Source of the DNA: Planctomycetota bacterium
GTDB lineage: Bacteria > Planctomycetota > UBA1135 > GCA-002686595
NCBI GenBank assembly: GCA_046349615.1
Contig: JAXMBZ010000005.1
Location: forward strand, 49,785 to 113,784
DNA: 64,000 nt
Direction: 5' to 3'
In this document: one piece after another, positions 22,129 through 49,911 of the stretch
Layout: each line of letters begins with the position of its first letter
Position numbering within the stretch: position 1 is the stretch's first letter
Translations under genes and position numbers: made by a program
The notes under the pieces: model-generated
The model's input: the letters and a program-made list of their open reading frames with translations, nothing else
Told to the model about the DNA's origin: nothing
Databases searched by the model: none

Positions 22129-22989
22129 ATGGCTGAAATCACCGCGAAGATGGTCAACGACCTGCGTGAGCGCAGCGGCGCTCCGATGATGGACTGCAAG
22201 CGCGCGCTCAGCGCGACGAACGGCAACGTCGAGGCCGCGTTCGACGAGCTGCGCAAGGCCGGGCTCAAGAACGCCGAGAAGAAGTCGACGAACGAGATGG
22301 GCGAAGGGCGCCTCGCGGCCTTCGTCGCGCCGGGCGGACGCGTCGGCGCGATGGTCGCCGTCACGTGCCAGACGGACTTCGTCGCGAAGGGCGACGAGTT
22401 CCAGGCGCTGCTCGCGGAGCTCGCGAGGCAGATCGCCGAGAAGAACCCGGCGAACGCGGAGGCGCTCGGCGCGCTCAAGCACTCGAAGACGGGCGTCGCC
22501 CTGAGCGAGACCGTCAAGCTCCTCGCGGGCAAGACGGGCGAGAACATGGCGATCGCCAAGTTCCAGCGCTACGAGAACGCGCAGGGCCGCGTCGGCTGCT
22601 ACGTGCACCACGACGGCAAGAAGGGCGCGCTCGTCAACGTGACGAACGGCGCCGACGAGGCGGTCGCGACGGACTTCTTGAAGAAGCTCTCGATGCACGT
22701 CGTATCCGCGATGCCGATCCCGGTCGCGAACTCGCGCACGGAGATCCCGCAGAGCGAGGTCGACCGCGAGCGCGGCGTGCTGCTCGAGCTGCCCGACCTC
22801 AAGGGCAAGCCGGCGGAGCTGCAGGAGAAGATCCTGAAGGGCCGCATGGAGAAGTTCTTCGCCGAGCGCGTGCTCTCGGAGCAGGCGTGGATGCTCGACG
22901 ACAAGCTGACCGTGCAGAAGGCCGTCGAAGCGGCGCTCGGGAAGGGCGCCAAGATCGAAGGGTTCGCGCGCTTCCAGATCGGGAAGTGA
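22129..22989 (+). CDS. tsf: Elongation factor Ts.
   Basis: MAEITAKMVNDLRERSGAPMMDCKRAL is the UBA-like N-terminus and TCQTDFVAK the dimerisation core. An AGGAGA Shine-Dalgarno sits 7 nt upstream. Confidence 0.9.
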   Translation: MAEITAKMVNDLRERSGAPMMDCKRALSATNGNVEAAFDELRKAGLKNAEKKSTNEMGEGRLAAFVAPGGRVGAMVAVTCQTDFVAKGDEFQALLAELARQIAEKNPANAEALGALKHSKTGVALSETVKLLAGKTGENMAIAKFQRYENAQGRVGCYVHHDGKKGALVNVTNGADEAVATDFLKKLSMHVVSAMPIPVANSRTEIPQSEVDRERGVLLELPDLKGKPAELQEKILKGRMEKFFAERVLSEQAWMLDDKLTVQKAVEAALGKGAKIEGFARFQIGK

Positions 22990-23861
22990 ACGGCGATTCG
23001 TTCGACGAGGACGAGCTCAGGAAGTGGTTCGAACGCCACTTCCCGGGCTCGTCCGATCGTTTCGGCGGGATGAAGGACGCGCTGCGGCGCGCGAACGGCG
23101 ATGTCGACGCCGCGTTCGACGAGTTGCGCAAGGCGGGGCTCTCGGAGGAGCGCAAGCGCGGGACGGTCCACCGGAGCGGCGGCATCGCGACCGCGTTCGC
23201 CGCGGACGCTCGCGCGGGAGCGATCGTGCTGCTCGCGTGCCAGACGGACTTCGTCGCGCGGGGAGATTCGTTCCGCGCGCTGCTCGCGGAGCTCGCGCGG
23301 CTCGTGCTCGAGCATGCGCCGAGAGACGTCGAAGCGCTCGGAGCTCTCGAGCACCCGACGAGCGGCGTCACGGTGCGCGAGGCCGTGGAGCGGCTCGGGC
23401 GCGAGACCGGTGAGGAACTCAAGCTCGCGGCGTGCGAGCGCTTCGCGAACGCGACGGGGCGCGTCGGCGGCTACGTGCACCACGACGGCAAGAAGGGCGC
23501 GCTCGTGAGCGTGACCACGGGCGCCGACGAAGCGCAGGCGAACGCGTTCTTGAAGCTCCTGAGCATGCACGTCGTCTCCGCGTGGCCGACGCCGATCGTG
23601 GTGACGCGGGACGAGATCACGCCGGCGGTGATCGAACGCGAGCGCGGCGTGCTGCTCGAACTCCCTGACTTGAAGGGCAAGCCGGCGGAACTCCAGGAGA
23701 AGATCCTGAAGGGCCGCATGGAGACGTTCTTCGCCGAGCGCGTGCTCTCCGAGCAGGCGTGGATGCTCGACGACAAGCTGACCGTGCAGAAGGCCGTCGA
23801 AGCGGCGCTCGGGAAGGGCGCCAAGATCGACGGGTTCGCGCGCTTCCAGATCGGGAAGTGA
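22986..23861 (+). CDS. Second, divergent EF-Ts paralog in tandem with tsf (291 aa).
   Basis: Its GTG start overlaps the tsf stop (GTGA). The central region shares the EF-Ts core (LLACQTDFVARGD, GGYVHHDGKKGALV). The last ~85 aa are nearly identical to tsf. The N-terminal ~45 aa (VNGDSFDEDELRKWFERHFPGSSDRFGG) is unlike a standard EF-Ts. Confidence 0.7.
   Translation: MNGDSFDEDELRKWFERHFPGSSDRFGGMKDALRRANGDVDAAFDELRKAGLSEERKRGTVHRSGGIATAFAADARAGAIVLLACQTDFVARGDSFRALLAELARLVLEHAPRDVEALGALEHPTSGVTVREAVERLGRETGEELKLAACERFANATGRVGGYVHHDGKKGALVSVTTGADEAQANAFLKLLSMHVVSAWPTPIVVTRDEITPAVIERERGVLLELPDLKGKPAELQEKILKGRMETFFAERVLSEQAWMLDDKLTVQKAVEAALGKGAKIDGFARFQIGK
23610..23861 (+). repeat. Direct repeat: 3' ~250 bp of the tsf paralog is a near-identical copy of 22738..22989 (the 3' end of tsf).
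   Basis: Long identical nucleotide runs are shared, e.g. gagcgcggcgtgctgctcga, aagggcaagccggcgga, gagaagatcctgaagggccgcatggag, and ctgaccgtgcagaaggccgtcgaagcggcgctcgggaagggcgccaagatcga. Confidence 0.8.
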
Positions 23862-23901
23862 ACGCGGTGCGGTCCATGGGCTCGCACGCACGACGCAGGA
23901 C

Positions 23902-34996: not shown

Positions 34997-36328
34997 GTGG
35001 ACTGGCGTCCGAACGTCGACGACGGACGGCGGCTCCGCCTCGGGTACGGCCTCAACCTGCACGCGCCGCGGACGCTCGCGGAGCTCGAGGACGGCCTCAC
35101 CGCGGTCACGCTCCCGTTGCGCGCGCGCGTCGCGCCGAACGCGCGCTTCGGCGTCGGGATGTACCTGCCCGCGGAGCTCGCGCACGCACTCGATCCCGCG
35201 CGCGATGCGCACGCGCTCGAACCGCTCGCCGCGTTCCTCGTCGAGCACGCGCTCGATCCGTTCACGTTCAACGCGTTCCCGTACGAGCGCTTCCAGTCGG
35301 ACGGATTGAAGGAGCGCGTCTTCGCGCCCGCCTGGTGGGAGCGCGCGCGGCTCGACTACACGCTCGCCGTCGCGCGGATCGCGGTCGAGCTCGCGGCGCG
35401 CGGAGCGAGTGGAGGTGCGGCGCGCGATGCGGGCCGACACGTCTCGATCTCGACGCACTGCGGGCAGTTCGGCGCGTTCGTCGAAGGGAGCGCGAACGAG
35501 CTCGCCGCGATCGCGCACTTCGCGCGCGCGGCGCTCGAGCTCGCGCGGCTCGAGGACGCGCGCGGCGTGCGCGTCGTGCTCGCGCTCGAACCCGAGCCGC
35601 GGTCGGCGTGCAACGACCTCGCGGCGCTCGCGCGCTTCCGCCCGCGGCTCCTCGAGCGCGGAGCACGCTTCCTCGCGCGCGAGCACGCCGTCGCGTCGTC
35701 GCGCGCCGAAACGCTCCTCGCGCGGCACGTCGGCGCGTGCGTCGACGCCTGCCACGCCGCAGTCGAGTTCGAGGACGCGTCGACCGCGGGCCGCGGCACC
35801 GGCGCGCTCGCGAAGCTCCAGTTCACGAGTGCGCTCGTCGTCCGCGAGCCGGCGACGAACGCGCGCGGACGAGCCGCGCTGCTCGCGCTCGACGAGCCGC
35901 GCTTCCTGCACCAGGTCACGGGGCGCCGCGGCGCGGAACTCCTGCGCGCGCGCGACCTCGGCGAGCTCTCCACGGGCCTCGAGCGCTGGCTCGCGTGCGA
36001 CGAATGGCGCTGCCACTTCCACGTGCCGGTCGACCTCGAGGAGGCGCGCGACGAGCGCGGCGCGCCGCTCGGGCTCGCGACGACGCGCGGGTTCGCGGAC
36101 GCGGTGCTCGAGCGCGTGCTCGGCTCTCAGGGCGCGGGGCATGGCGGCGCGGGCGGCGACCTCGGCGAGCTCCACCTCGAGATCGAGACGTACACCTGGG
36201 ACGTGCTCCCCGCCTTCGCGCGCCCGGGAGGGGACGCGAGCGACCGGCTGGTCGAGGGCCTCGCACGCGAGTACGCACACGTCGCGAGCGTGCTCGCGCG
36301 GGCCGGCTGGACGCCGGCGGGCGGCTGA
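34997..36328 (+). CDS. Hypothetical protein, possibly a xylose-isomerase-like TIM-barrel (sugar phosphate isomerase/epimerase) enzyme.
   Basis: The product is 443 aa. Weak pattern resemblance (HVSISTHCG, LALEPEP, HLEIETYTWDV) is to TIM-barrel isomerases. Composition is Ala/Arg-rich. Low confidence in the function. Confidence 0.35.
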   Translation: MDWRPNVDDGRRLRLGYGLNLHAPRTLAELEDGLTAVTLPLRARVAPNARFGVGMYLPAELAHALDPARDAHALEPLAAFLVEHALDPFTFNAFPYERFQSDGLKERVFAPAWWERARLDYTLAVARIAVELAARGASGGAARDAGRHVSISTHCGQFGAFVEGSANELAAIAHFARAALELARLEDARGVRVVLALEPEPRSACNDLAALARFRPRLLERGARFLAREHAVASSRAETLLARHVGACVDACHAAVEFEDASTAGRGTGALAKLQFTSALVVREPATNARGRAALLALDEPRFLHQVTGRRGAELLRARDLGELSTGLERWLACDEWRCHFHVPVDLEEARDERGAPLGLATTRGFADAVLERVLGSQGAGHGGAGGDLGELHLEIETYTWDVLPAFARPGGDASDRLVEGLAREYAHVASVLARAGWTPAGG

Positions 36329-36431
36329 GGGAAAGGGGCCTCCGGCGGGGTTGACAGCCCCCGGGTGGGACAGTACTTTTCCCGCCCTCTTCGCGGCAGG
36401 CCGACGCGGAGACGTCTCCGACGAACACGGC

Positions 36432-36509
36432 GGTCCCATCGTCTAGCCCGGCCTAGGACACCAGGTTTTCATCCTGGCGACAGGGGTTCAAATCCCCTTG
36501 GGATCACCA
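36432..36509 (+). tRNA. tRNA-Glu (anticodon UUC), with CCA encoded.
   Basis: The D arm cgtctagcccggcctaggacacc closely parallels the E. coli tRNA-Glu D arm. The anticodon stem is ccagg/cctgg with loop ttttcat. The T arm is agggg-ttcaaat-cccct. The acceptor ggtccca/tgggatc has one G-U pair. Confidence 0.8.
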
Positions 36510-36512
36510 TCC

Positions 36513-36557
36513 AAGCGGGCGGTGTCGACCTCGGTCGGCGCCGCCCGCTTTCTTTCC
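36513..36557 (+). terminator. Intrinsic terminator after tRNA-Glu (stem aagcgggcgg ... ccgcccgctt, then tctttcc).
   Basis: A 10-bp GC stem with an 18-nt loop is followed by a T-rich run, directly downstream of the tRNA. Confidence 0.5.
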
Positions 36558-36592
36558 CGCTCCCTTTCTCCCTCCATGGGGTCGCGCCCTCG

Positions 36593-37267
36593 ATGGACAC
36601 GCTGATCGTCATGGCCAAGGCTCCGCGGGCGGGCGTCGCGAAGACGCGCCTCGCCGCGGCGCGCGAGGTCGGTCCGGACGGCGCGGCGCGGATCGCGGCG
36701 GCGCTCCTCGAGGACACGCTCCGGACGGCGCGCGCCTTCGTCCACGCGGCGGGGGAGCGCGAGCTCGTCCTCGCCTTCGCGCCCGACGACGAACGCGCGT
36801 GGTTCGCCTCCGCGGCGCCGGATGCGCGCCTCCTCGAGCAGGGCGCGGGCACGCTCACGCCTCGGCTCGTGCGCGCGACGCGCGACGCGTTCGAGCGCGG
36901 CGCACGGCGCGTCGTCGTCGTCGGGACGGACGCGCCCGAGTTGTCGGTGAACGACCTCGAGCGCGCGTTCGAGGCGCTCGCGCGGCGCGCGGTCGTGCTC
37001 GGGCCGAGCGCGGACGGCGGGTACTGGCTCGTCGGGCTCGCGCGCGCGTGCGACGCGCTCTTCGAGGGCGTGCCGTGGAGCACGGCGCAGGTCCTCGCCT
37101 CGACGCGCGCGCGCGCGGCGGAGCTCGGGCTCGAGGTCGAGCTCCAGGACCTCCACTTCGACGTCGACGAGCCCGCGGACCTCGCGCGCGCAAAACGATG
37201 GCTCGCTTCGACGGCGGTGGAGCGCGCGCCCGCGCTGCGCGCCGAACTCACGCGCCTTCGGACCTGA
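36593..37267 (+). CDS. DUF2064 / TIGR04282-type nucleotidyltransferase-fold (MobA-like) protein.
   Basis: MDTLIVMAKAPRAGVAKTRL...VVVVGTDAP...GPSADGGYWLVGL is characteristic of this family. An alternative ATG lies 18 nt upstream. Confidence 0.65.
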   Translation: MDTLIVMAKAPRAGVAKTRLAAAREVGPDGAARIAAALLEDTLRTARAFVHAAGERELVLAFAPDDERAWFASAAPDARLLEQGAGTLTPRLVRATRDAFERGARRVVVVGTDAPELSVNDLERAFEALARRAVVLGPSADGGYWLVGLARACDALFEGVPWSTAQVLASTRARAAELGLEVELQDLHFDVDEPADLARAKRWLASTAVERAPALRAELTRLRT

Positions 37268-37282
37268 CGCGAACGGCGCTGC

Positions 37283-40172
37283 TCAGAGTCCGTGCGCTTC
37301 GAAGCCGCCGAGCAGCTCTTGCTGGTGCGGGGTCGGCGTCAGCGGGTTCGCGTCGTCGTCGTCGAGCACGAGCCAGCGCCGCTTGATCCCCGGGTGGATC
37401 GCGAACTCCGGGTACGTCGAGCACCAGGCGCGAAAGAGCGCGTTCGCGATCGACGCGCCGGTCGTCGCGCCGTGCACCGCGACGAGCCGTGCGCGGACCT
37501 GCCAGAGCGCGCCCAGGACGACCTCGCCCTTCTTGTGCGGGTCCCCGAGGAACTGGTCCGCGTAGCTCGCGTACTGCCTGCAGGTCTCGCCGGAGCGCGC
37601 GCACGTCTCCGCCGAACAAAAGTAGGGGAAGAGCTCGGGTTGACCGGTCACGTAGGTCGCCCAGACGTCCGCCAGGCCTTCGTTGAACGCGCTCGGGGCC
37701 TCGATGCCGAAGTCGAGGTCGTTCATCCAGTGCCCGAGCTCGTGGACGAGCACCGTCGCGTTCGCCTTGTTCGTGCACGCTCCGTCGAACGCTCCACAGC
37801 ACCCGCAGCCGGCGGGCTGGATCGGGAAGAGGCCGCAGGCGCCGCCGCCGATGCTGAACCAGGTCTCGGGGCTGCCGACGCCGCCCGGCAGCGCGCTCGT
37901 GGGAACGAAGCGCGCGTCGCAGCCGTTGACCGTCTGCGCGAGGTTGACGCGCGTGAGCTTCGCGTACCCATCGGATTCCCACGCTGCGTCCGCCGGGTTG
38001 ACCTCGGCGATCCAGTGCCGGAGGCGCGTCGTCCACCAGTACGCGTTCGCTTGCGCAGTCAGCGTGGGGCCGCCCGAGTACGGCGCGGGACCGCCGAGCA
38101 GGATCCGGTTGCCCGCGTCGTTCGTCACGGTCGAGGCCAGCGCGTAGTCCGGCCCCGCTTCGTTGCGCACCACCGCGTGACGGCCGCGGAAGCGCGCCGT
38201 GATCGTCCGCGGCGCGGAGCCGGGGAAGCGGAACGTCCCCTCGGCGTCGGTCCAGACGACGTTGCCGAACTCGTCCTCCAACTCGAGATCGGCGAGCACG
38301 GAGGGCACTTCGGCGCTCGGATCGCCGCTCGAAGCCGGCGTCGCGCACGAGGTCGGCGGACACGCGCCGCACGTCCCGGTGCTGCACGGCGAGCACGTCG
38401 TCTGCGGGATCGCCGCGTGCGCGAGGTCGTCGGGCAGGATGCCGGGCGTGATCCACGCGCCGACTCGCCCCGTGACGTCGAAGCGCAGCACGCGGTCCAC
38501 GCACGCGACGACCGCGCCGCTCCGGGCGTCGACGCGGACCTCGTACACGTCGGGCTCGGGACCGTCCGCGAGCGACTGGACGACCTGCGTCCAGACGAGC
38601 CGCCGCGCGTCGCCGGGTGCGCCGGGTCGCGCGCGAAGAGCAGGTGCGCGGGGGCGAGCGCCTTCCCGCGCGGCTCCAGTGCCCGAGCTCGTGGACGAGC
38701 ACCGTCGCGTTCGCCTTGTTCGTGCACGTCCCGTCGAACGCACCGCAGCACCCGCACGCCGCGGGCTGGATCGGGAAGATGCCGCAGACGCCGCCGCCGA
38801 TGCTGAACCACGTCTCCGGGCTGCCGACGCCGCCCGGCAGAGCGCTCGTGGGCACGAAGCGCGCGTCGCACCCGTTGACCGTCTGTGCCATGTTGACGCG
38901 CGTGAGCTTCGCGTAGCCGTCGGACTCCCACGCCGCGTCCGCCGGGTTCACCTCGGCGATCCAGTGCCGAAGGCGCGTCGTCCACCAGTACGCGTTGGCC
39001 TGCGCGGTCAGCGTGGGGCCGCCCGAGTACGGCGCGGGGCCGCCGAGGAGCAGCCGGTTGCCCGCGTCGTTCGTCACGATCGTCGTCAGCGCGTAGTCGG
39101 GGCCCGCCTCGTTGCGCACGACCGCGTGCCGGCCGCGGAAGCGCGCCGTGATCGTCCGCGGCGCGGAACCGGGGAAGCGGAAGGTCCCGTCCGCGTCGGT
39201 CCACACGACGTTTCCGAGCTCGTCCTCCAGCTCGAGGTCGGCGAGCACGACGGGCACCTCCGCGCTCGGATCGCCGCTCGACGCCGCCGTCGCGCACGAG
39301 GTCGGCGGACACGCGCCGCAGGTCGCGGTGCTGCACGGCGAGCACGTCGTCTGCGGGATCGCCGCGTGCGCGAGGTCGTCCGGCAGGATGCCGGGCGTGA
39401 TCCACGCGCCGACTCGCCCCGTGACGTCGAAGCGCAGCACGCGGTCCACGCACGCGACGACCGCGCCGCTCCGGGCGTCGACGCGGACCTCGTACACGTC
39501 GGGCTCGGGACCGTCCGCGAGCGACTGGACGACCTGCGTCCAGACGAGCCGCCGCGCGTCCGCCGGGTGCGCCGGGTCGCGCGCGAAGAGCAGGTGCGCG
39601 GGGGCGAGCGCCTTCCCGGCGCGGCCGGTGCGCGCCTCGAACGCGTCCCGCGCCGTGCGCGCGGCGGTCTCGGCGACGACGAGCGGCGTCGCGGGCGGGA
39701 GCTCAGGAGCGCTCGCGGCCGTCGACACGACGTCGAGCAGCGCGCCGTCCGTCGCGAGCAGGACGCCGAGCCCACCTTCGACGGCCACTCCCGCCGCGCT
39801 CTGACGGAAGCGCACGGCCACCTTGTCCGTGCTGCCGACGAGCGCGAGCGGGAGGAACGTGGCCCGCTCGAAGACCAGCGTGTCGGCGTCGATCCCGAGC
39901 CGTTCGCACGCGGCGCGGGCGCACACCGTCGCGCGCAGCCGCGCGTCGTCCTCGCTGCGGAGCGCCGTCTCGGGCCGCGGCGCGAGCTCTGCGAGTCGCG
40001 CCGCGTCGAAGTGCACGCTCCCGTCCTCGTCGCGCTCCAGCTCCGACGCCGGAGCGGTCGGGCGCGGCACCGTCGCGGCTTCCCGCGGGTCGCGCGCGTC
40101 CGAGGACGGCGCGAGTCGGTCGACGGTCGCGCCGGTGAGGAGGACCACGAAGGCGGGCGCGGCGAACGGCAT
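37283..40172 (-). pseudogene. Secreted HExxH zinc metallopeptidase gene (propeptide-like N-terminus plus catalytic region) containing an internal diverged tandem duplication. The reading frame is broken at the repeat junction: a disrupted gene, or indel errors in a repeat.
   Basis: Frame A (40172 down) encodes a signal peptide, a propeptide-like region, then module 1 ending ...NKANATVLVHELGHW, then Arg-rich junk with no stop until 37248. The frame of ORF 37283..38743 encodes module 2 (about 97% identical to module 1), which continues past HELGHW into MNDLDFGIEAPSAFNEG... and the true C-terminus. The two frames differ by 1 nt. Confidence 0.55.
37727..39625 (-). repeat. Tandem duplication of a ~948-951-bp unit (two copies, about 95-97% identical) inside the metallopeptidase gene.
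   Basis: Copy A is about 38675..39625 and copy B about 37727..38674. Each unit ends exactly after the HELGHW codons. Copy B lacks 1 nt twice within its first ~75 nt relative to copy A (cgcgccggg vs cgcgcggg; ggcggacgcg vs ggcgacgcg). These create the frame break. Confidence 0.8.
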
Positions 40173-40227
40173 GGAGCCATCGTCGCCGTTCGCCCGGGGA
40201 GCGCAAGGGCCGCCGATTTCCGCGGGC

Positions 40228-41166
40228 CTACCCCGTCGCGCGCGGATGCGCCTTCTCGTAGACGGCGCGCAGGCGCTCGATCGACACGTGCGTGTAGATC
40301 TGCGTCGTCACGAGGTGCGCGTGGCCGAGCAGCTCCTGCACGGAGCGCAGGTCGCAACCCTTGTCGAGCAGGTGCGTCGCGAACGAATGCCGCAGCGTGT
40401 GCGGCGTGCAACGGCGCGTGATGCCCGCCTTGCGCACGCAGCTCTCGACGATCCGGCCGAGCGAACGCGTCGTCAGCCTTCCGCCGCGCGGGTTCAGGAA
40501 CACCGCGCTCGCTCCGACGCCTTTCGGCTTCGGTCGCGCGGGGTCCTCGAGGTACGCCGCGAGCGCTTCACGCGCGTAGCGTCCGAGCCCGACGAGCCGC
40601 TCCTTGCGGCCTTTCCCGCGCACGCGCGCGACGCCGCGCGCGAGGTCGAGGTCCGCGCGGTCGAGCCCGACCGTCTCCGCGGCGCGCGTGCCCGCGCTGT
40701 AGACGAACTCGAGCAGCGCGCGATCGCGACGTCCGGCGGGCGTCTTCGCGTCGGGTGCGCGCAAGAGCGCGTCGACCTCCTCCGTCGAGAGCGCGCCGGG
40801 CAGCTTGCGCTCGCCGCGCCGTTGACGCAGGCCTGCGGCGGGGTGCGTCTCGATCGCGCCCTTCTGCAGCAAGTGACGGAACCACGAGCGCGCCGCGCTG
40901 AGCTTGCGTTGGATCGACGCGCGCGCGAGCTCGCGCCCGTCGAGGTCGGCGAGGTACGCGCGCAACATCCGCGGCGTGATCTCGGCGGGCTCGGCGACCT
41001 CGCGGCCGGCGAGGAAGAGCGCGAACTGCTCGAGGTCCTTCCGATACGCGCGCAGCGTGTGCGGCGAGGCCCCGCGCGTCGCCGCGAGCTCCTTCAAGAA
41101 CGCGTCGATCGAGCCCGCGATGCGCGGGGGGATCGGCGGCGACTCGACCTCGTCGCGCGCGGTCAC
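40228..41166 (-). CDS. Tyrosine recombinase, XerC/XerD family.
   Basis: The N-terminal SAM-like domain (IDAFLKELAATRGASPHTLRAYRKDL) is followed by the catalytic R..HxxR..Y region (HTLRHSFATHLL, LGHAHLVTTQIYTHV). Its GTG start overlaps the stop of the upstream gene (GTGA). Confidence 0.85.
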   Translation of the reverse strand: MTARDEVESPPIPPRIAGSIDAFLKELAATRGASPHTLRAYRKDLEQFALFLAGREVAEPAEITPRMLRAYLADLDGRELARASIQRKLSAARSWFRHLLQKGAIETHPAAGLRQRRGERKLPGALSTEEVDALLRAPDAKTPAGRRDRALLEFVYSAGTRAAETVGLDRADLDLARGVARVRGKGRKERLVGLGRYAREALAAYLEDPARPKPKGVGASAVFLNPRGGRLTTRSLGRIVESCVRKAGITRRCTPHTLRHSFATHLLDKGCDLRSVQELLGHAHLVTTQIYTHVSIERLRAVYEKAHPRATG

Positions 41167-45399: not shown

Positions 45400-46794
45400 A
45401 TGAGCGCGCGCGCGTGGTTCCGTCCGCGGGTCGAGGCGCTCGGGCCCGTGCCCGACGCGGGCGAGCTCGTCCAGCGGCTCGCGGGGCATCGCGCGCGCTT
45501 CGCGCTCGACAGCGCGGGCGGCGCGCCGCGGCGGTGGAGCGTCGTCGCGTTCGACCCGCTCGCGGCGGGAGCGCCGCCGAGCGCGCTCCTCGCGCTGCGC
45601 GCGTTCCACGCGCGGCTCCGTCTCGACGGCGGCGACGACGTGCCCGGCCCGTTCCACGGCGGGTTGCTCGCGGCGCTCGCCTACGACCTCGGCGTCGCGG
45701 GCGAGACGCGCGTCGGGCTCCCGCGCGACGCGTGGGGGACGCCGCTCGTCGTCGGGGGGCTCTACGTCGACTTCGTCGTGCGCGACGAGGCGAGCGGCGA
45801 GGGCTGGCTCGTGCTCGGCGAGGAGCCCGGCGACGGCCGTCCGTCGCTCGACGCGCGGCGCGAGCGCGTCCGCGCGGCGCTCGCGGCGGAATCGCCGCCG
45901 TTCGAGCTCCCCCGGCCGCTCGGCCCGCTCGTGCGGCACACGAGCGCCGAAGAGCACATGCGCCGCGTCGACGCGCTGCGCGCGGAGATCGCCGCGGGCG
46001 AGCTCTACCAGGCGAACCTCGCGCACCGGTTCTCGCGCGCCGTCGCGACGCGGAGCGACGCGCTCTACCGCCGCCTGCGCGCCGTCAACCCGGCGCCCTA
46101 CGCGACGTTCGTCGAGTGGGACGAGACGAACTCGGTCGACGCGCTCGCGACGCCGCGCGGCGCGCTGCTCTCCGCGTCGCCGGAGCTCCTGCTCGAGTTC
46201 GACGGCCGCGTCGCGCGCACGCGGCCGATCAAGGGGACGATCGCGCGCGGGAGCACGCCGGCGGAGGACGCCGCGCGCGCCGCGGAGCTCCTCGCGAGCG
46301 CGAAGGACCGCGCGGAGCTCGCGATGATCGTCGACCTCGAACGGAACGACCTCGGCCGCGTCGCGCGCGCGGGCGGCGTGCGCGTCGAGGCCTTCCCACG
46401 CCTCGAGTCGTTCGCGACGGTGCACCACCTCGTCGCCGACGTCGTCGCGGACGTCGCGCCGGGCCGCGACGCGTTCGACCTGCTCGCCGCGCTCTTCCCC
46501 GGCGGCTCGATCACCGGCGCGCCGAAGCTCGCGAGCATGGCTGCGATCGCGGAGCTCGAGGGCGAGGGCCGCGGCTTCTTCACGGGCTCCGCGGGCTTCG
46601 TCGACACGCGCGGTCGCGCGGCGTTCGACATCCTGATCCGCACGCTCGTGTGGCGCGACGAGGGCGGCGGACGCGGCACGGCGTCCTACCACGTCGGCGG
46701 CGGCATCACGTGGAGCTCGGACGCGGCCGCCGAGGACCGCGAGACGCTCGCGAAGGGCGCGGCGCTCGCTCGCGCGCTCGATCCGGAGGCGTGA
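45400..46794 (+). CDS. Chorismate-binding enzyme; aminodeoxychorismate synthase component I (PabB) or anthranilate-synthase-I-like.
   Basis: The C-terminal chorismate-binding core carries the conserved SPELLL, RTRPIKGT, GGSITGAPK and FFTGSAGF blocks. Confidence 0.8.
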   Translation: MSARAWFRPRVEALGPVPDAGELVQRLAGHRARFALDSAGGAPRRWSVVAFDPLAAGAPPSALLALRAFHARLRLDGGDDVPGPFHGGLLAALAYDLGVAGETRVGLPRDAWGTPLVVGGLYVDFVVRDEASGEGWLVLGEEPGDGRPSLDARRERVRAALAAESPPFELPRPLGPLVRHTSAEEHMRRVDALRAEIAAGELYQANLAHRFSRAVATRSDALYRRLRAVNPAPYATFVEWDETNSVDALATPRGALLSASPELLLEFDGRVARTRPIKGTIARGSTPAEDAARAAELLASAKDRAELAMIVDLERNDLGRVARAGGVRVEAFPRLESFATVHHLVADVVADVAPGRDAFDLLAALFPGGSITGAPKLASMAAIAELEGEGRGFFTGSAGFVDTRGRAAFDILIRTLVWRDEGGGRGTASYHVGGGITWSSDAAAEDRETLAKGAALARALDPEA

Positions 46795-47057
46795 GCCCGG
46801 CCGGGAGCGTTCCATCGCGGCGGGATCGAGTCCCGGCCGCGCCGCGCCTTCAGGAAGCCGCGAGGTCCCCCGCGTCGCGGCGTGCGGGTTTCGCCTTCGC
46901 CGGGAAGGAAAACGCGCTCCGGGCATCGACCTTCGCCCTGGACGTCGTCCGCGCGCTTGCAGCGCGCCCGCGCGCTTGCGGTAATGGCGGAAAAGGCTTC
47001 CCTCCGCGCGCGCGTGTCCGCGCGATCCGCTCGGGATAGGAGAGACGCCCCATCCAG

Positions 47058-47867
47058 GTGACGACCATGCTCACGAACGGACTGTTCCTCCTCGCCTCGT
47101 TCCTCCCCGCGGCGCCCGCGCCGACGATCGCCGCGTCCGCGCCTCTTGCGCAGGAGCCCGCGCCGAACACGAACCCCGACAAGCGGCCGGAGGTCGAGAA
47201 GCTCGTCGACGAGCTCGACGGCTTCATCAAGAAGGAAGGCAAGGCCGACCAGGACGCGGTCGGCACGATCGACAAGATGCTCCAGGAGTTCCCGAAGTCC
47301 GGGCCGAAGGACCGCCAGGCGATGGTGAAGGAGCTCTCGAAGTGCTTCGAGCAGCGGCGCATGGTCCCCGAGGGCCAGGCGCCGAACAACAAGCTCTACC
47401 TCGCCTCCGCCGTCGCGCTCGGCCAGATGGGGCCAGAGAGCGTCGAGGTCCTGATGACGTGGATCGACGCGAAGACCTTGAAGAAGGACCTCGCGGTCCA
47501 GCACCGACTGATCCTCTCGCTCGGCAAGACGAAGGACAAGAAGGGGCTGAAGGTCCTCAAGAACATGCTGAACAACAAGGAGAACTCGCTGATCAGCGCG
47601 TCGGCCGAAGCGCTCGGCGAGTTCGCCACGAGCGACCTCGAGACGCGCAAGGACGTCTTCGAGGCGCTCTTGAAGACCGTGATGGAAGCGAAGGGCTTCA
47701 AGGACACGAACCCGGACAACACGACCGCGCGCGACAAGTACGACGTGATCGCGGCGCCGATCATCACGAGCCTCGGCAAGCTCTCGAAGCACGAGGAGCG
47801 GGATCCCGAGAAGTGGCAAACGTGGTGGAACAAGAACAAGAAGGCCGACTGGGACAAGGACAGTTGA
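47058..47867 (+). CDS. Secreted Lys-rich alpha-helical (HEAT/ARM-like repeat) hypothetical protein.
   Basis: A GTG start is preceded by GGAGAG. A signal peptide (LFLLASFLPAAPAPTIAASAPLAQ) is present. Composition is unusual for this genome (many K, D, E) but uses GC-rich codons. Confidence 0.5.
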   Translation: MTTMLTNGLFLLASFLPAAPAPTIAASAPLAQEPAPNTNPDKRPEVEKLVDELDGFIKKEGKADQDAVGTIDKMLQEFPKSGPKDRQAMVKELSKCFEQRRMVPEGQAPNNKLYLASAVALGQMGPESVEVLMTWIDAKTLKKDLAVQHRLILSLGKTKDKKGLKVLKNMLNNKENSLISASAEALGEFATSDLETRKDVFEALLKTVMEAKGFKDTNPDNTTARDKYDVIAAPIITSLGKLSKHEERDPEKWQTWWNKNKKADWDKDS

Positions 47868-48496
47868 GCCGCGGCCGCGCCGCCGCCGCGTTCGTCTGGC
47901 CCTGCGCGCTGCTCGTCGGCGCCGCGGTGCTCGGCTTCGCCGCCCTGCGTCCGCGCGCCTCGCTCTCGGTCGCCGTGCCCGTGCTCGGCGCGAAGGAGCC
48001 CGTCGAGACGTCCGGCCTCGAGGCGCGGCTCGCGGAGCGCGGGCTCCGCGTGCGCGTCGCGCCGTTCCACGCCGATCCGCGGCGGCAGGTGTTCGAGACC
48101 CAAGCGCTCCGCGCGCGCTTCGGCCGCCGCGAAGGCGAGCCGTACCGCGTCGAACTGCTCCTCGACGAGGGCGCGGCGCCGATGCACGTCGACCTCGGCG
48201 CGCTCGCGATCGCCGATGCGCGGGGAGCGGCGCTCGAACCGCTCGTGCGCGTGGACGCGTCGAAGTCCATCGCGCCGGATCCGGTGCGGACGCTCCTCGA
48301 AGCGGGGCCGCTCGAACTCGCGCCGGGAGCGAGCACGACCTGCGTGTTCTGGGGCCGCGCGCCCTCCGACGGCGCGCGGATCACCGGCCTCGACGCCGCG
48401 CCGCTCGCGCTCACCGCGACGCGCTGGGCCACCGCGCCGCTCGACGACGTGCTCGCGCGCGTGCCCGCGCCGCCCGAAGACGAGGCCGGACGATGA
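47864..48496 (+). CDS. Hypothetical membrane/secreted protein (start uncertain).
   Basis: In-frame hydrophobic N-terminus (AAAFVWPCALLVGAAVLGFAAL). A putative TTG start overlaps the upstream stop. Its stop overlaps the next ATG (ATGA). Low confidence. Confidence 0.3.
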   Translation: MSRGRAAAAFVWPCALLVGAAVLGFAALRPRASLSVAVPVLGAKEPVETSGLEARLAERGLRVRVAPFHADPRRQVFETQALRARFGRREGEPYRVELLLDEGAAPMHVDLGALAIADARGAALEPLVRVDASKSIAPDPVRTLLEAGPLELAPGASTTCVFWGRAPSDGARITGLDAAPLALTATRWATAPLDDVLARVPAPPEDEAGR

Positions 48497-49911
48497 GGCG
48501 TTTCGCGCTCGGAATCGCGCTCGCCGCGCTCGCCGCCGCGTGCGAGCGGGTCGACGGCGGGAGCGCGCCGAGCGCGCTCTCCGTGTCCCCTTCGAAGGCG
48601 ACGAACGCCGAGCGCGCCGTCGAATCGACTCCGCGCGCCGAGTCGCGCGCTTCCGACGCGGGAGCATCGATCCCGAGCGCGAACGAGCCCGGTTCGGGCG
48701 CGGTGGACCCGTCGGGAATCGGCGGGAACGGCGCCGGGACGGACGAACTCGCGCGCGCCCGAGCGCGGGTACGCGAGCTCGAAGCCGAGGTCGCGCACCT
48801 GCGCGAGGAGCGCATCGCGCGCGAGCGCGAGTGGCTCGAGTACACGCAGTCGATCGCGCGGCTCCACACGATCGCGGAGCTCTCCACCGCGCGCTTCCAG
48901 CCCGCGCCGGACGTCGTCGGCGCCGAGCGCGCGCCCGCGACGGGCGAGATGCAGGCTCCGCCGCCGCTCGCGCCGCTCGACCCCGAGCACGCGCGCGCCG
49001 CGAAGGAGCGCGACGACGAGCTCCGCGCGAGCCTGCGCGCGCTGCTGATCGCCGAGCAGGTCTCGGGGCTCGAATTGCTCGAGAGCGGACACCTCGCCGA
49101 CGGCGCGATCGGGCCCGTCGTGCTGCGCATGCGCGACGACGCGGGGCGCACGGTCGGCACGCTGTGCGCGGAGCGGATGCACCTCGAGGCGTCGCTCTCC
49201 GCGCGCTCGGTGACGCTCGTCCTCGAGGACGGCTACGAGCGCATCGGCGGCGAGCGGATCCCGTTCCCCGCGGCGAACGACGCGCTCCCGAGCGAACCGA
49301 GCTCGGTCTCGAGTGCGGCGGGTTCGTCGCCGAGCGCAACTCCGAGTCCTGTCTCGTCGACCCCCGCGCCGACGTCCACCGCGTTCGGCGTCGCTCCGTC
49401 CGCGGACGTTCCCGCGCCGACCGCGCCGCTCCTGCGCAGCGGTCGTCGGCGCATCGAGCTCCCGCACGTGGATCCGCGGCCGTGGATCGAGGCCGTGCCC
49501 GAGCTCTTCCGGCCCGCGGACAAGGAGCCGCCGCCCGACGACGGACGCTGGGACCTGCTCTCCGTGCGCACGGGGTTGAACCTCTTGCTCCGCGCCGACG
49601 TCGAGCACGGCACGTGGCGGCTCGAAGGGCTCGCGGGCGTCCAGGAGGGCGTCCTGCGCGACGTGCAGCTCGACGAGCTCGACCGTGAAGGCCGGCTCGT
49701 GAAGAAGCTCTTCGCCGACCGCCTGCGCCTCGTCGCCGAGGAGCGCGGCCTCCGCCTCGAGCTCGAGAGCGGCGCGATCGTCCGCGGCGATGCGAAGACG
49801 CCGTTCCTCGACGGGCGTTACCGGATCTTCCTGCCCGCGGCGAACCTCGCCGATTGGCGCGCCGCCGGGCTCCCGGGCCTCTCCGAGCCGCCGCCGCGCA
49901 AGGCGCGTTGA
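48493..49911 (+). CDS. Hypothetical lipoprotein with coiled-coil and Ser/Pro-rich linker.
   Basis: A lipobox is present (MRRFALGIALAALAAAC). The region RVRELEAEVAHLREERIAREREWLEY is coiled-coil-like. A PSxS linker follows. Confidence 0.5.
   Translation: MRRFALGIALAALAAACERVDGGSAPSALSVSPSKATNAERAVESTPRAESRASDAGASIPSANEPGSGAVDPSGIGGNGAGTDELARARARVRELEAEVAHLREERIAREREWLEYTQSIARLHTIAELSTARFQPAPDVVGAERAPATGEMQAPPPLAPLDPEHARAAKERDDELRASLRALLIAEQVSGLELLESGHLADGAIGPVVLRMRDDAGRTVGTLCAERMHLEASLSARSVTLVLEDGYERIGGERIPFPAANDALPSEPSSVSSAAGSSPSATPSPVSSTPAPTSTAFGVAPSADVPAPTAPLLRSGRRRIELPHVDPRPWIEAVPELFRPADKEPPPDDGRWDLLSVRTGLNLLLRADVEHGTWRLEGLAGVQEGVLRDVQLDELDREGRLVKKLFADRLRLVAEERGLRLELESGAIVRGDAKTPFLDGRYRIFLPAANLADWRAAGLPGLSEPPPRKAR

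Follow-up and report, generated by a model that had tools for sequence, protein, structure and literature searches.

The window analysed here is a stretch of 64,000 nucleotides (nt) from a Planctomycetota bacterium (GenBank assembly GCA_046349615.1, contig JAXMBZ010000005.1). Its minus strand carries, at 40172..37283, the gene for a predicted secreted zinc protease, which is interrupted by a 951-nt tandem repeat and two frameshifts, and which comprises 646 codons in every relative. Comparison of each repeat copy with alleles from other assemblies indicates that the contig holds two alleles of one normally single-copy segment, placed head to tail. With a probability of about one half, we attribute this arrangement to an assembly chimera of two co-occurring strain haplotypes; a very recent recombination scar in living cells is weighed against it below.

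Organisation of the gene and the repeat

The limits of the gene were drawn from its open reading frames (ORFs) and a six-frame translation, guided by a 646-residue orthologue (P0001) and other alleles. Self-BLAST of the minus-strand sequence 40172..37248 yields one direct tandem repeat, in which gene nt 548–1498 align to nt 1499–2447 with 93.9% identity and 54 mismatches. This pair is the sole near-identical repeat of the window, and a repeat search gives a spacing of 949–950 nt. Tandem Repeats Finder did not report the repeat, the period of which exceeds the program's limit of 500 nt, and BLAST together with global alignment was used in its place. Two further ‘gaps’ in the BLAST alignment represent a cluster of substitutions in codons 289–290 and are not indels.

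Codons 1–182 (39627..40172; minus strand, like all segments of the gene) encode a hydrophobic N-terminus, predicted to be a signal peptide, and the FTP-like part of a propeptide. They are followed by copy A (39626..38676; 951 nt, codons 183–499), which ends in ...VLVHELGHW, and by copy B (38675..37727; 949 nt). The C-terminal 147 codons and the stop codon (37283..37726), which carry E515 and D519 of the motif NEGLAD, follow copy B only. The undeleted unit measures exactly 317 codons and is thus a multiple of 3, which copy B, at 949 nt, is not. The tandem repeat, its junction and the frame break had been described in the original prediction and are confirmed by self-BLAST and by translation of the frames; the amino-acid differences quoted there are likewise all correct. 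Its estimate of 95–97% identity between the copies is too high for the repeat overall and does not capture a strongly non-uniform distribution, and of the two unit lengths that it gave as multiples of 3 (948 and 951 nt), only the latter holds.

The junction lies at 38675/38674 on the minus strand, where ...CACTGGA, ending with the first base of the Met500 codon, abuts GCCGCGC..., the first letter of which is the second base of codon 183. Strict microhomology is absent at this point, with only an imperfect similarity close by (GCACYGG, 6/7), and the interval 36000–41000 contains no Ns; the join is seamless and base-precise. Just past it, copy B lacks two single nucleotides, as had been predicted: one C of a CC pair (GCCGCGC[C]GGG, ~38668) and one G of a GG pair (CCCGGCG[G]ACGCG, ~38611), located 7 and 64 nt past the junction, respectively. 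Both bases are retained in copy A and in the three single-module contigs that we used for comparison, namely L001, from the metagenome-assembled genome (MAG) GCA_044222285.1 at NCBI, L003, an ENA MEGAHIT contig, and L006, from the Logan run SRR6837552.

As a result of these deletions, the coding information shifts from frame 0 to frame 2 and then to frame 1, with frame 2 confined to the interval between them (38610..38668, minus strand), as delimited by the alignment of the copies and by the frame shifts. The frame-0 ORF continues through 475 junk codons to 37248 and reaches a total of 974 amino acids (aa); that these codons are free of stops is explained by a G+C content of ~70%. The frame of the second module and the C-terminus is open over 38743..37283, and if both bases are restored, an uninterrupted frame of 963 codons results. 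While the original prediction saw no plausible start for the second frame, GenBank annotates there a 421-aa ORF (37283..38548, minus strand; MFO1010189.1, U1F29_09040; here P0009) that starts with an internal GTG at 38548. P0009 is identical to the translation of copy B and the C-terminus, and it lacks the signal peptide and the FTP part.

Other stop-free ORFs of up to 740 aa, antisense or out of frame, stretch across 37248–40421 (e.g. 38199–40421 on the plus strand). They are likewise a consequence of the ~70% G+C content and do not constitute evidence of genes.

Divergence between the copies

The two copies are not each other's closest relatives, and their divergence is not even along the unit. 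Nucleotides 2–245 are identical save for the two deletions, and all 57 substitutions lie within nt 246–898 (0/244 proximal versus 57/653 distal positions; Fisher p = 1.1e-8), where the divergence amounts to 8.7%. In the following, we refer to the strain's own diverged allele as W-type and to the allele seen in other samples as O-type; the latter occurs elsewhere in one NCBI MAG, one ENA assembly and several Logan runs. Codons 1–182 are W-type, with 86% nt identity to L001, and so is copy A throughout, which differs from the alleles of L001, L003 and L006 by ~7–9% over the unit. Copy B is W-type in its proximal 210 nt and O-type in the rest: its nt 246–951 show 57 differences from copy A and none from L006 and L003, and the comparison of its distal part with L006 reveals no difference in 708 nt.

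The O-type tract extends beyond the repeat. It spans 1,377 nt (38467..37091, minus strand) and includes the distal part of copy B, the C-terminal 147 codons (99.8% identical to L001) and 192 nt downstream of the gene; over this length, it shows no differences from L006 and two from L003, in a setting that is 7–15% diverged. Read along the gene, the window is W-type from the N-terminus to HELGHW, restarts at codon 183, where it stays W-type for 210 nt, continues as O-type until 192 nt past the gene and then becomes W-type again. The switch from W to O within copy B falls into 35 identical nt (nt 210–246), and the return to diverged sequence is at 37091/37090. On either side of the tract (40700..38676 and 37090..35700), the window is 7–15% diverged from L006 and L003, and the outer flanks show 99–99.5% identity to L003, with zero indel columns in ~11 kb. 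L003 is itself W-type at module nt 114–180 and O-type on both sides of this segment.

Substitution rates lead to the same conclusion. Between copies A and B, the synonymous divergence (dS) is 0.29 and the non-synonymous divergence (dN) 0.034 (dN/dS 0.115), with 38 synonymous and 15 non-synonymous codon differences; the N-terminal region, compared with L006, has a dS of 0.284 and a dN/dS of 0.39. Because the dS between the copies equals that between the W- and O-type alleles of the N-terminal region, the divergence of the copies is allelic, that is, between orthologous alleles under purifying selection, and did not accumulate after a duplication. By these comparisons, the contig holds two alleles of one normally single-copy segment head to tail, and an aged duplication in situ is refuted. 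The original prediction had taken the scattered differences for the mark of a genuine, somewhat aged duplication, a view that is at odds with both the perfect match of distal copy B to L006 and the 244 identical proximal nt.

We consider this a useful caution for similar cases, as a diverged tandem repeat with an excess of synonymous changes mimics an old duplication under selection, when here it represents two strain alleles that lie next to each other. Comparing each copy with the alleles of other assemblies resolves the question of age without recourse to reads.

Relatives of the protease

To place the gene among its relatives, we compared the reconstructed single-module protein with 5.8 billion protein clusters, in a survey that covered ~15 billion proteins as a whole. 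Only eight clusters matched, and every taxonomically labelled match is from Planctomycetota. The closest relative, P0001, shares 94% identity over its full length of 646 aa, and its 90% cluster contains a further six alleles of this length, from Logan and ENA assemblies, as well as the 421-aa P0009. A single HExxH motif is found in 15/15 sequences, and the long ones show no internal repeat; all 14 full-length relatives and alleles consist of one module, and none of them is split. A scan of genome contigs returned, among the matches listed, one distant relative, L005, with 59% identity, and neither close strains nor the MAG from which the window derives. The comparison of orthologues for single versus double modules, which the original prediction had recommended, therefore gives the single state in all cases, and one module is, as far as these sequences tell, the normal state of the gene. 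Together, these proteins form a very small, Planctomycetota-restricted, thermolysin-like family that lies outside every curated model.

Predicted structure and function

In the alignment of the family, H494, E495, H498, E515 and D519 are invariant, with E515 located 17 residues past H498, within NEGLAD. The segment HELGHW...NEGLAD aligns to HEitH...NEsfSD of aureolysin with an E-value of 0.3, which is not significant alone. None of nine members matches the Pfam models Peptidase_M4 or M4_C, the best NCBIfam match is the thermolysin model at an E-value of 0.18 (9.9 bits versus a cut-off of 1350), and a phmmer search against the PDB returned nothing. At the N-terminus, matches to FTP lie just under the Pfam gathering cut-off in six of the nine members (best in P0001, with 19.4 versus 21 bits), and sub-threshold matches to FTP, PepSY and CarboxypepD_reg recur among the family.

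The AlphaFold model of P0001 is of moderate confidence (mean predicted local distance difference test score, pLDDT, of 62.7). A Foldseek search with this model retrieved the propeptide of vibriolysin MCP-02 (3nqz_A, E 3e-5, TMt 0.52), the PepSY-domain protein YpeB (7e-5), ProA (9h0x, E 1.5e-4, TMt 0.45) and 3nqz_B (E 1.5e-3). On the strength of motifs and model, we read the protein as a predicted thermolysin-like (M4-like) secreted zinc protease, with formal membership in M4 not established. Its predicted layout comprises an FTP/PepSY-like propeptide, a Cys-rich linker, a β-sandwich and a catalytic domain with HELGH and E515.

Against this model, the repeat unit starts at residue 183, after a helix (167–182) and inside the PepSY-like fold, and ends at W499 within the active-site helix (489–505). 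The repeated unit, residues 183–499, is thus predicted to be neither a domain nor a structural module, and an in-frame product of 963 aa would be structurally incoherent. Copy A, for its part, is devoid of E515 and D519, and with them of the helix of the putative third zinc ligand. Judged from its sequence, the gene is non-functional as written, and no active enzyme could be made from it; of the earlier suggestion that the gene had been recently inactivated, the inactivity as written thus stands.

The Cys-rich segment, TCSPCSxxTCGACPPTSC, is conserved and corresponds to residues 265–302 of P0001; in the window, it is found at ~39380–39270 and ~38430–38320, once in each copy. Further cysteines (GCGCCG...C) precede the HExxH motif. 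Both Cys stretches are modelled with low confidence and are unlike canonical M4 proteases; they could, on the basis of the model, be disulfide or metal-binding knots.

Origin of the arrangement

The source genome is a MAG, and hence a population consensus, as the GenBank name of P0009 indicates. An assembly chimera would account for the arrangement as follows. Two haplotypes that differ by the 8.7% diverged tract would have co-occurred in a mixed population; in the assembly, this tract would have formed a bubble that could not collapse, with both branches kept in one contig. The 1-nt deletions beside the join would be local errors of the mis-join, and real cells would carry intact single-module genes with one allele or the other. 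That diverged haplotypes can give rise to false duplications is documented as a type of assembly error (Ko et al., 2022; PMC9516828). Since the O-type tract perfectly matches alleles found elsewhere and 244 nt are identical between the copies, the events must have been either very recent or in silico. Moreover, the absence of indels in the ~11 kb of flank, compared with two within 64 nt of the join, ties the deletions to the join. Finally, copy A ends 54 nt past its last allele-specific variant (nt 898), which equals k − 1 for k = 55 and lends weak support; a de Bruijn-graph signature was also sought at the start of copy B, where none matched.

Several observations weigh against such a chimera. 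Under the SPAdes convention, the coincidence with k = 55 misses by one, and its probability by chance is perhaps 0.05–0.1. The junction offers no homology for a mis-join in a k-mer graph, and, as there are no Ns either, its sequence must come from some reads or from an unverified scaffold join; in documented false duplications, the copies are as a rule separated by a gap (PMC9516828). At exactly 317 codons, the undeleted unit keeps the frame, though a multiple of 3 is expected in one of three cases by chance. The switch from W to O within 35 identical nt requires a real recombinant molecule if k > 35. Furthermore, the independent assemblies compared (L001, L003, L006 and the window) have a mutually mosaic structure in this region, from which it follows that real allelic imports are frequent here. 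Lastly, exact look-ups of the 974-aa ORF, P0009, the neighbouring DUF2064 protein and XerC found no independent contig of the strain.

A real, very recent recombination scar, which would make the gene a fresh pseudogene, is a serious contender that we place somewhat short of even odds. It could have formed by two routes. In the first, an in-frame tandem duplication of 951 nt in the W-type gene would have been followed by a homologous O-type import of 1.4 kb, which overwrote the distal part of copy B, the C-terminus and the 192 nt downstream. In the second, a one-sided event of homology-facilitated illegitimate recombination (HFIR) would have combined a homologous crossover of the donor at ~37090 with a homology-free join just past HELGHW, such that the displaced resident segment was retained. 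In both, the −1 deletions in the CC and GG runs would be errors of repair synthesis; error-prone repair polymerases are linked to −1 frameshifts in G/C runs.

Several features speak for a scar. The junction is blunt and novel, without Ns and with only the imperfect GCACYGG nearby, as in illegitimate joining, and the contig is otherwise collinear and free of indels relative to L003. Among independent assemblies, real recombinant haplotypes occur that break within the same 250 nt (as in L003), these genomes commonly show mosaic tracts of identity, and the original unit keeps the frame. On the other hand, a scar demands several rare events at one 1-kb site, namely the junction, an allelic import and two deletions, all of them too recent for any substitution in the 244 shared nt or in the imported tract of 1,377 nt. 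For the HFIR route, the first 210 nt of the donor would additionally have to be W-type, which is the case in no sampled allele. Nor has the junction been seen again: an exact search of the JGI metagenomes with the junction 20-mer gave a single match, L004, which shares nothing else with the window and is therefore put down to chance, and the junction is present in no other assembly.

In a more specific form, which we put forward tentatively, the juxtaposition in living cells would reflect a one-sided allele import at a recombination hot spot of an uncultured Planctomycetota population, with the displaced resident half-gene retained beside the incoming allele. In its boldest version, such partial copies might serve as gene-conversion donors for a fast-evolving secreted protease. 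HFIR has been invoked for an allele displacement in which remnants of the old allele persist (PMC5361080).

Very improbable, by comparison, is an aged in-frame duplication that gave rise to a functional double-module protease of 963 aa, with the deletions as sequencing errors, an option that had been raised in the original prediction. Restoring the two bases does open the 963-codon frame, and the dN/dS of 0.12 between the copies, taken alone, suggests selection on both. This low ratio is, however, explained by the allelic origin, copy B being the L006 allele in its distal part, and an old duplication would not leave 244 nt without substitution beside a tract of 8.7% divergence (Fisher p = 1e-8). 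In addition, no relative has two modules, the unit cuts through both the PepSY-like fold and the HExxH helix and leaves copy A without E515 and D519, and sequencing errors would have to account for two indels against a background of none in ~11 kb.

The weakest proposal, two separate products, likewise raised in the original prediction, or a read-through by programmed frameshifting, has in its favour the 421-aa ORF that GenBank annotates from the internal GTG, an automatic call, and is highly implausible in that the upstream product would consist of the propeptide, half a catalytic domain and 475 Arg-rich junk codons, the downstream one would have neither the signal peptide nor the FTP-like portion of the propeptide, and no homologue is split. 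In M4 proteases, the FTP-like propeptide part is a folding chaperone, and we know of no recoding signal for two separate −1 shifts 57 nt apart.

Two further explanations were rejected. Mis-joined paralogues from different loci, evidence of which would have spoken against the original prediction, are excluded, as the window contains no second copy and collinearity with L001 and L003 holds on both sides; what we see is the allelic equivalent, two haplotypes of one locus. Random sequencing indels as a background process are incompatible with 0 indel columns in ~11 kb of flank at 99–99.5% identity. For annotation, the locus is best described as one 646-codon gene, disrupted or mis-assembled, and neither as a two-module protease nor as two genes.

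Genomic neighbourhood

The protease gene is flanked by a DUF2064 gene (36593–37267), which has a tRNA-Glu(UUC) gene just upstream (36432–36509, plus strand), and, on the other side, by a gene for a XerC/D-like tyrosine recombinase (41097–40228, minus strand). The recombinase is ~99% conserved relative to L003, which argues for a core gene. Between window and L003, positions 35700–40700 stand out as a 5-kb island of 7–15% divergence between flanks of 99–99.5% identity; the island covers the 5′ half of the protease gene, the DUF2064 gene, the tRNA-Glu gene and part of the next gene. As the assemblies compared are mosaics of one another here, it looks like a recombination hot spot around the secreted protease.

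Elsewhere in the window, there is a second and older tandem repeat of ~800 nt (22203–22992 and 23078–23864), with 80% identity and many indels. It overlaps ORFs at 22129–22989 and 22365–23861 (plus strand) and probably represents either a pair of tandem paralogues or a repeated domain. In L001, an insertion of ~960 nt with a 303-aa ORF (L001:8058-9018) lies between a gene for a 444-aa protein and xerC, whereas neither the window nor L003 contains it; we considered it as a second duplication and rejected this, as no neighbouring sequence is duplicated. L001 also harbours a chorismate-binding enzyme that is called as two ORFs of 236 and 286 aa (L001:2165-3800). The counterpart in the window, 46200–48700, is strongly diverged from L001, with ~100 single-base alignment gaps.

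Comparison with known systems

On the protein level, the closest known systems are the preproenzymes of the families M4 (thermolysin) and M36 (fungalysin), such as vibriolysin MCP-02 (3nqz), Legionella ProA (9h0x) and aureolysin (1bqb). The protease described here shares with them one HExxH, the invariant Glu 17 residues past the second His and the NExxxD motif. It differs from them in that no significant sequence match to their catalytic models is found in Pfam, NCBIfam or the PDB, and in a conserved Cys-rich insert (CSPCSxxxCGACPP) and a β-sandwich between the propeptide and the catalytic part.

On the level of the locus, HFIR (PMC3240628) offers one parallel: one boundary of the arrangement, at ~37090, resembles a homologous crossover, the other, the repeat junction, is homology-free, and the incoming allele is ~8% diverged. 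HFIR has been defined experimentally in transformable bacteria and in E. coli conjugation and is not known from Planctomycetota, and, unlike in HFIR, the first 210 nt past the junction are of the resident type, so that a further conversion step would be required, or else a donor outside the sampled alleles. The other parallel is the false ‘heterotype’ duplication (PMC9516828), with which the arrangement has in common that the copies are alleles of a single-copy locus, that divergence is, locally, far higher than elsewhere in the genome, and that the assembly derives from a mixed population, the O-type being known here from other samples. Those duplications were described in diploid eukaryotes and are usually gapped, whereas we are dealing with a bacterial MAG and a seamless, base-precise, novel junction. 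With either parallel, the feature is of an ordinary kind, a strain-level chimera or a fresh recombination scar in a single-copy gene of a MAG.

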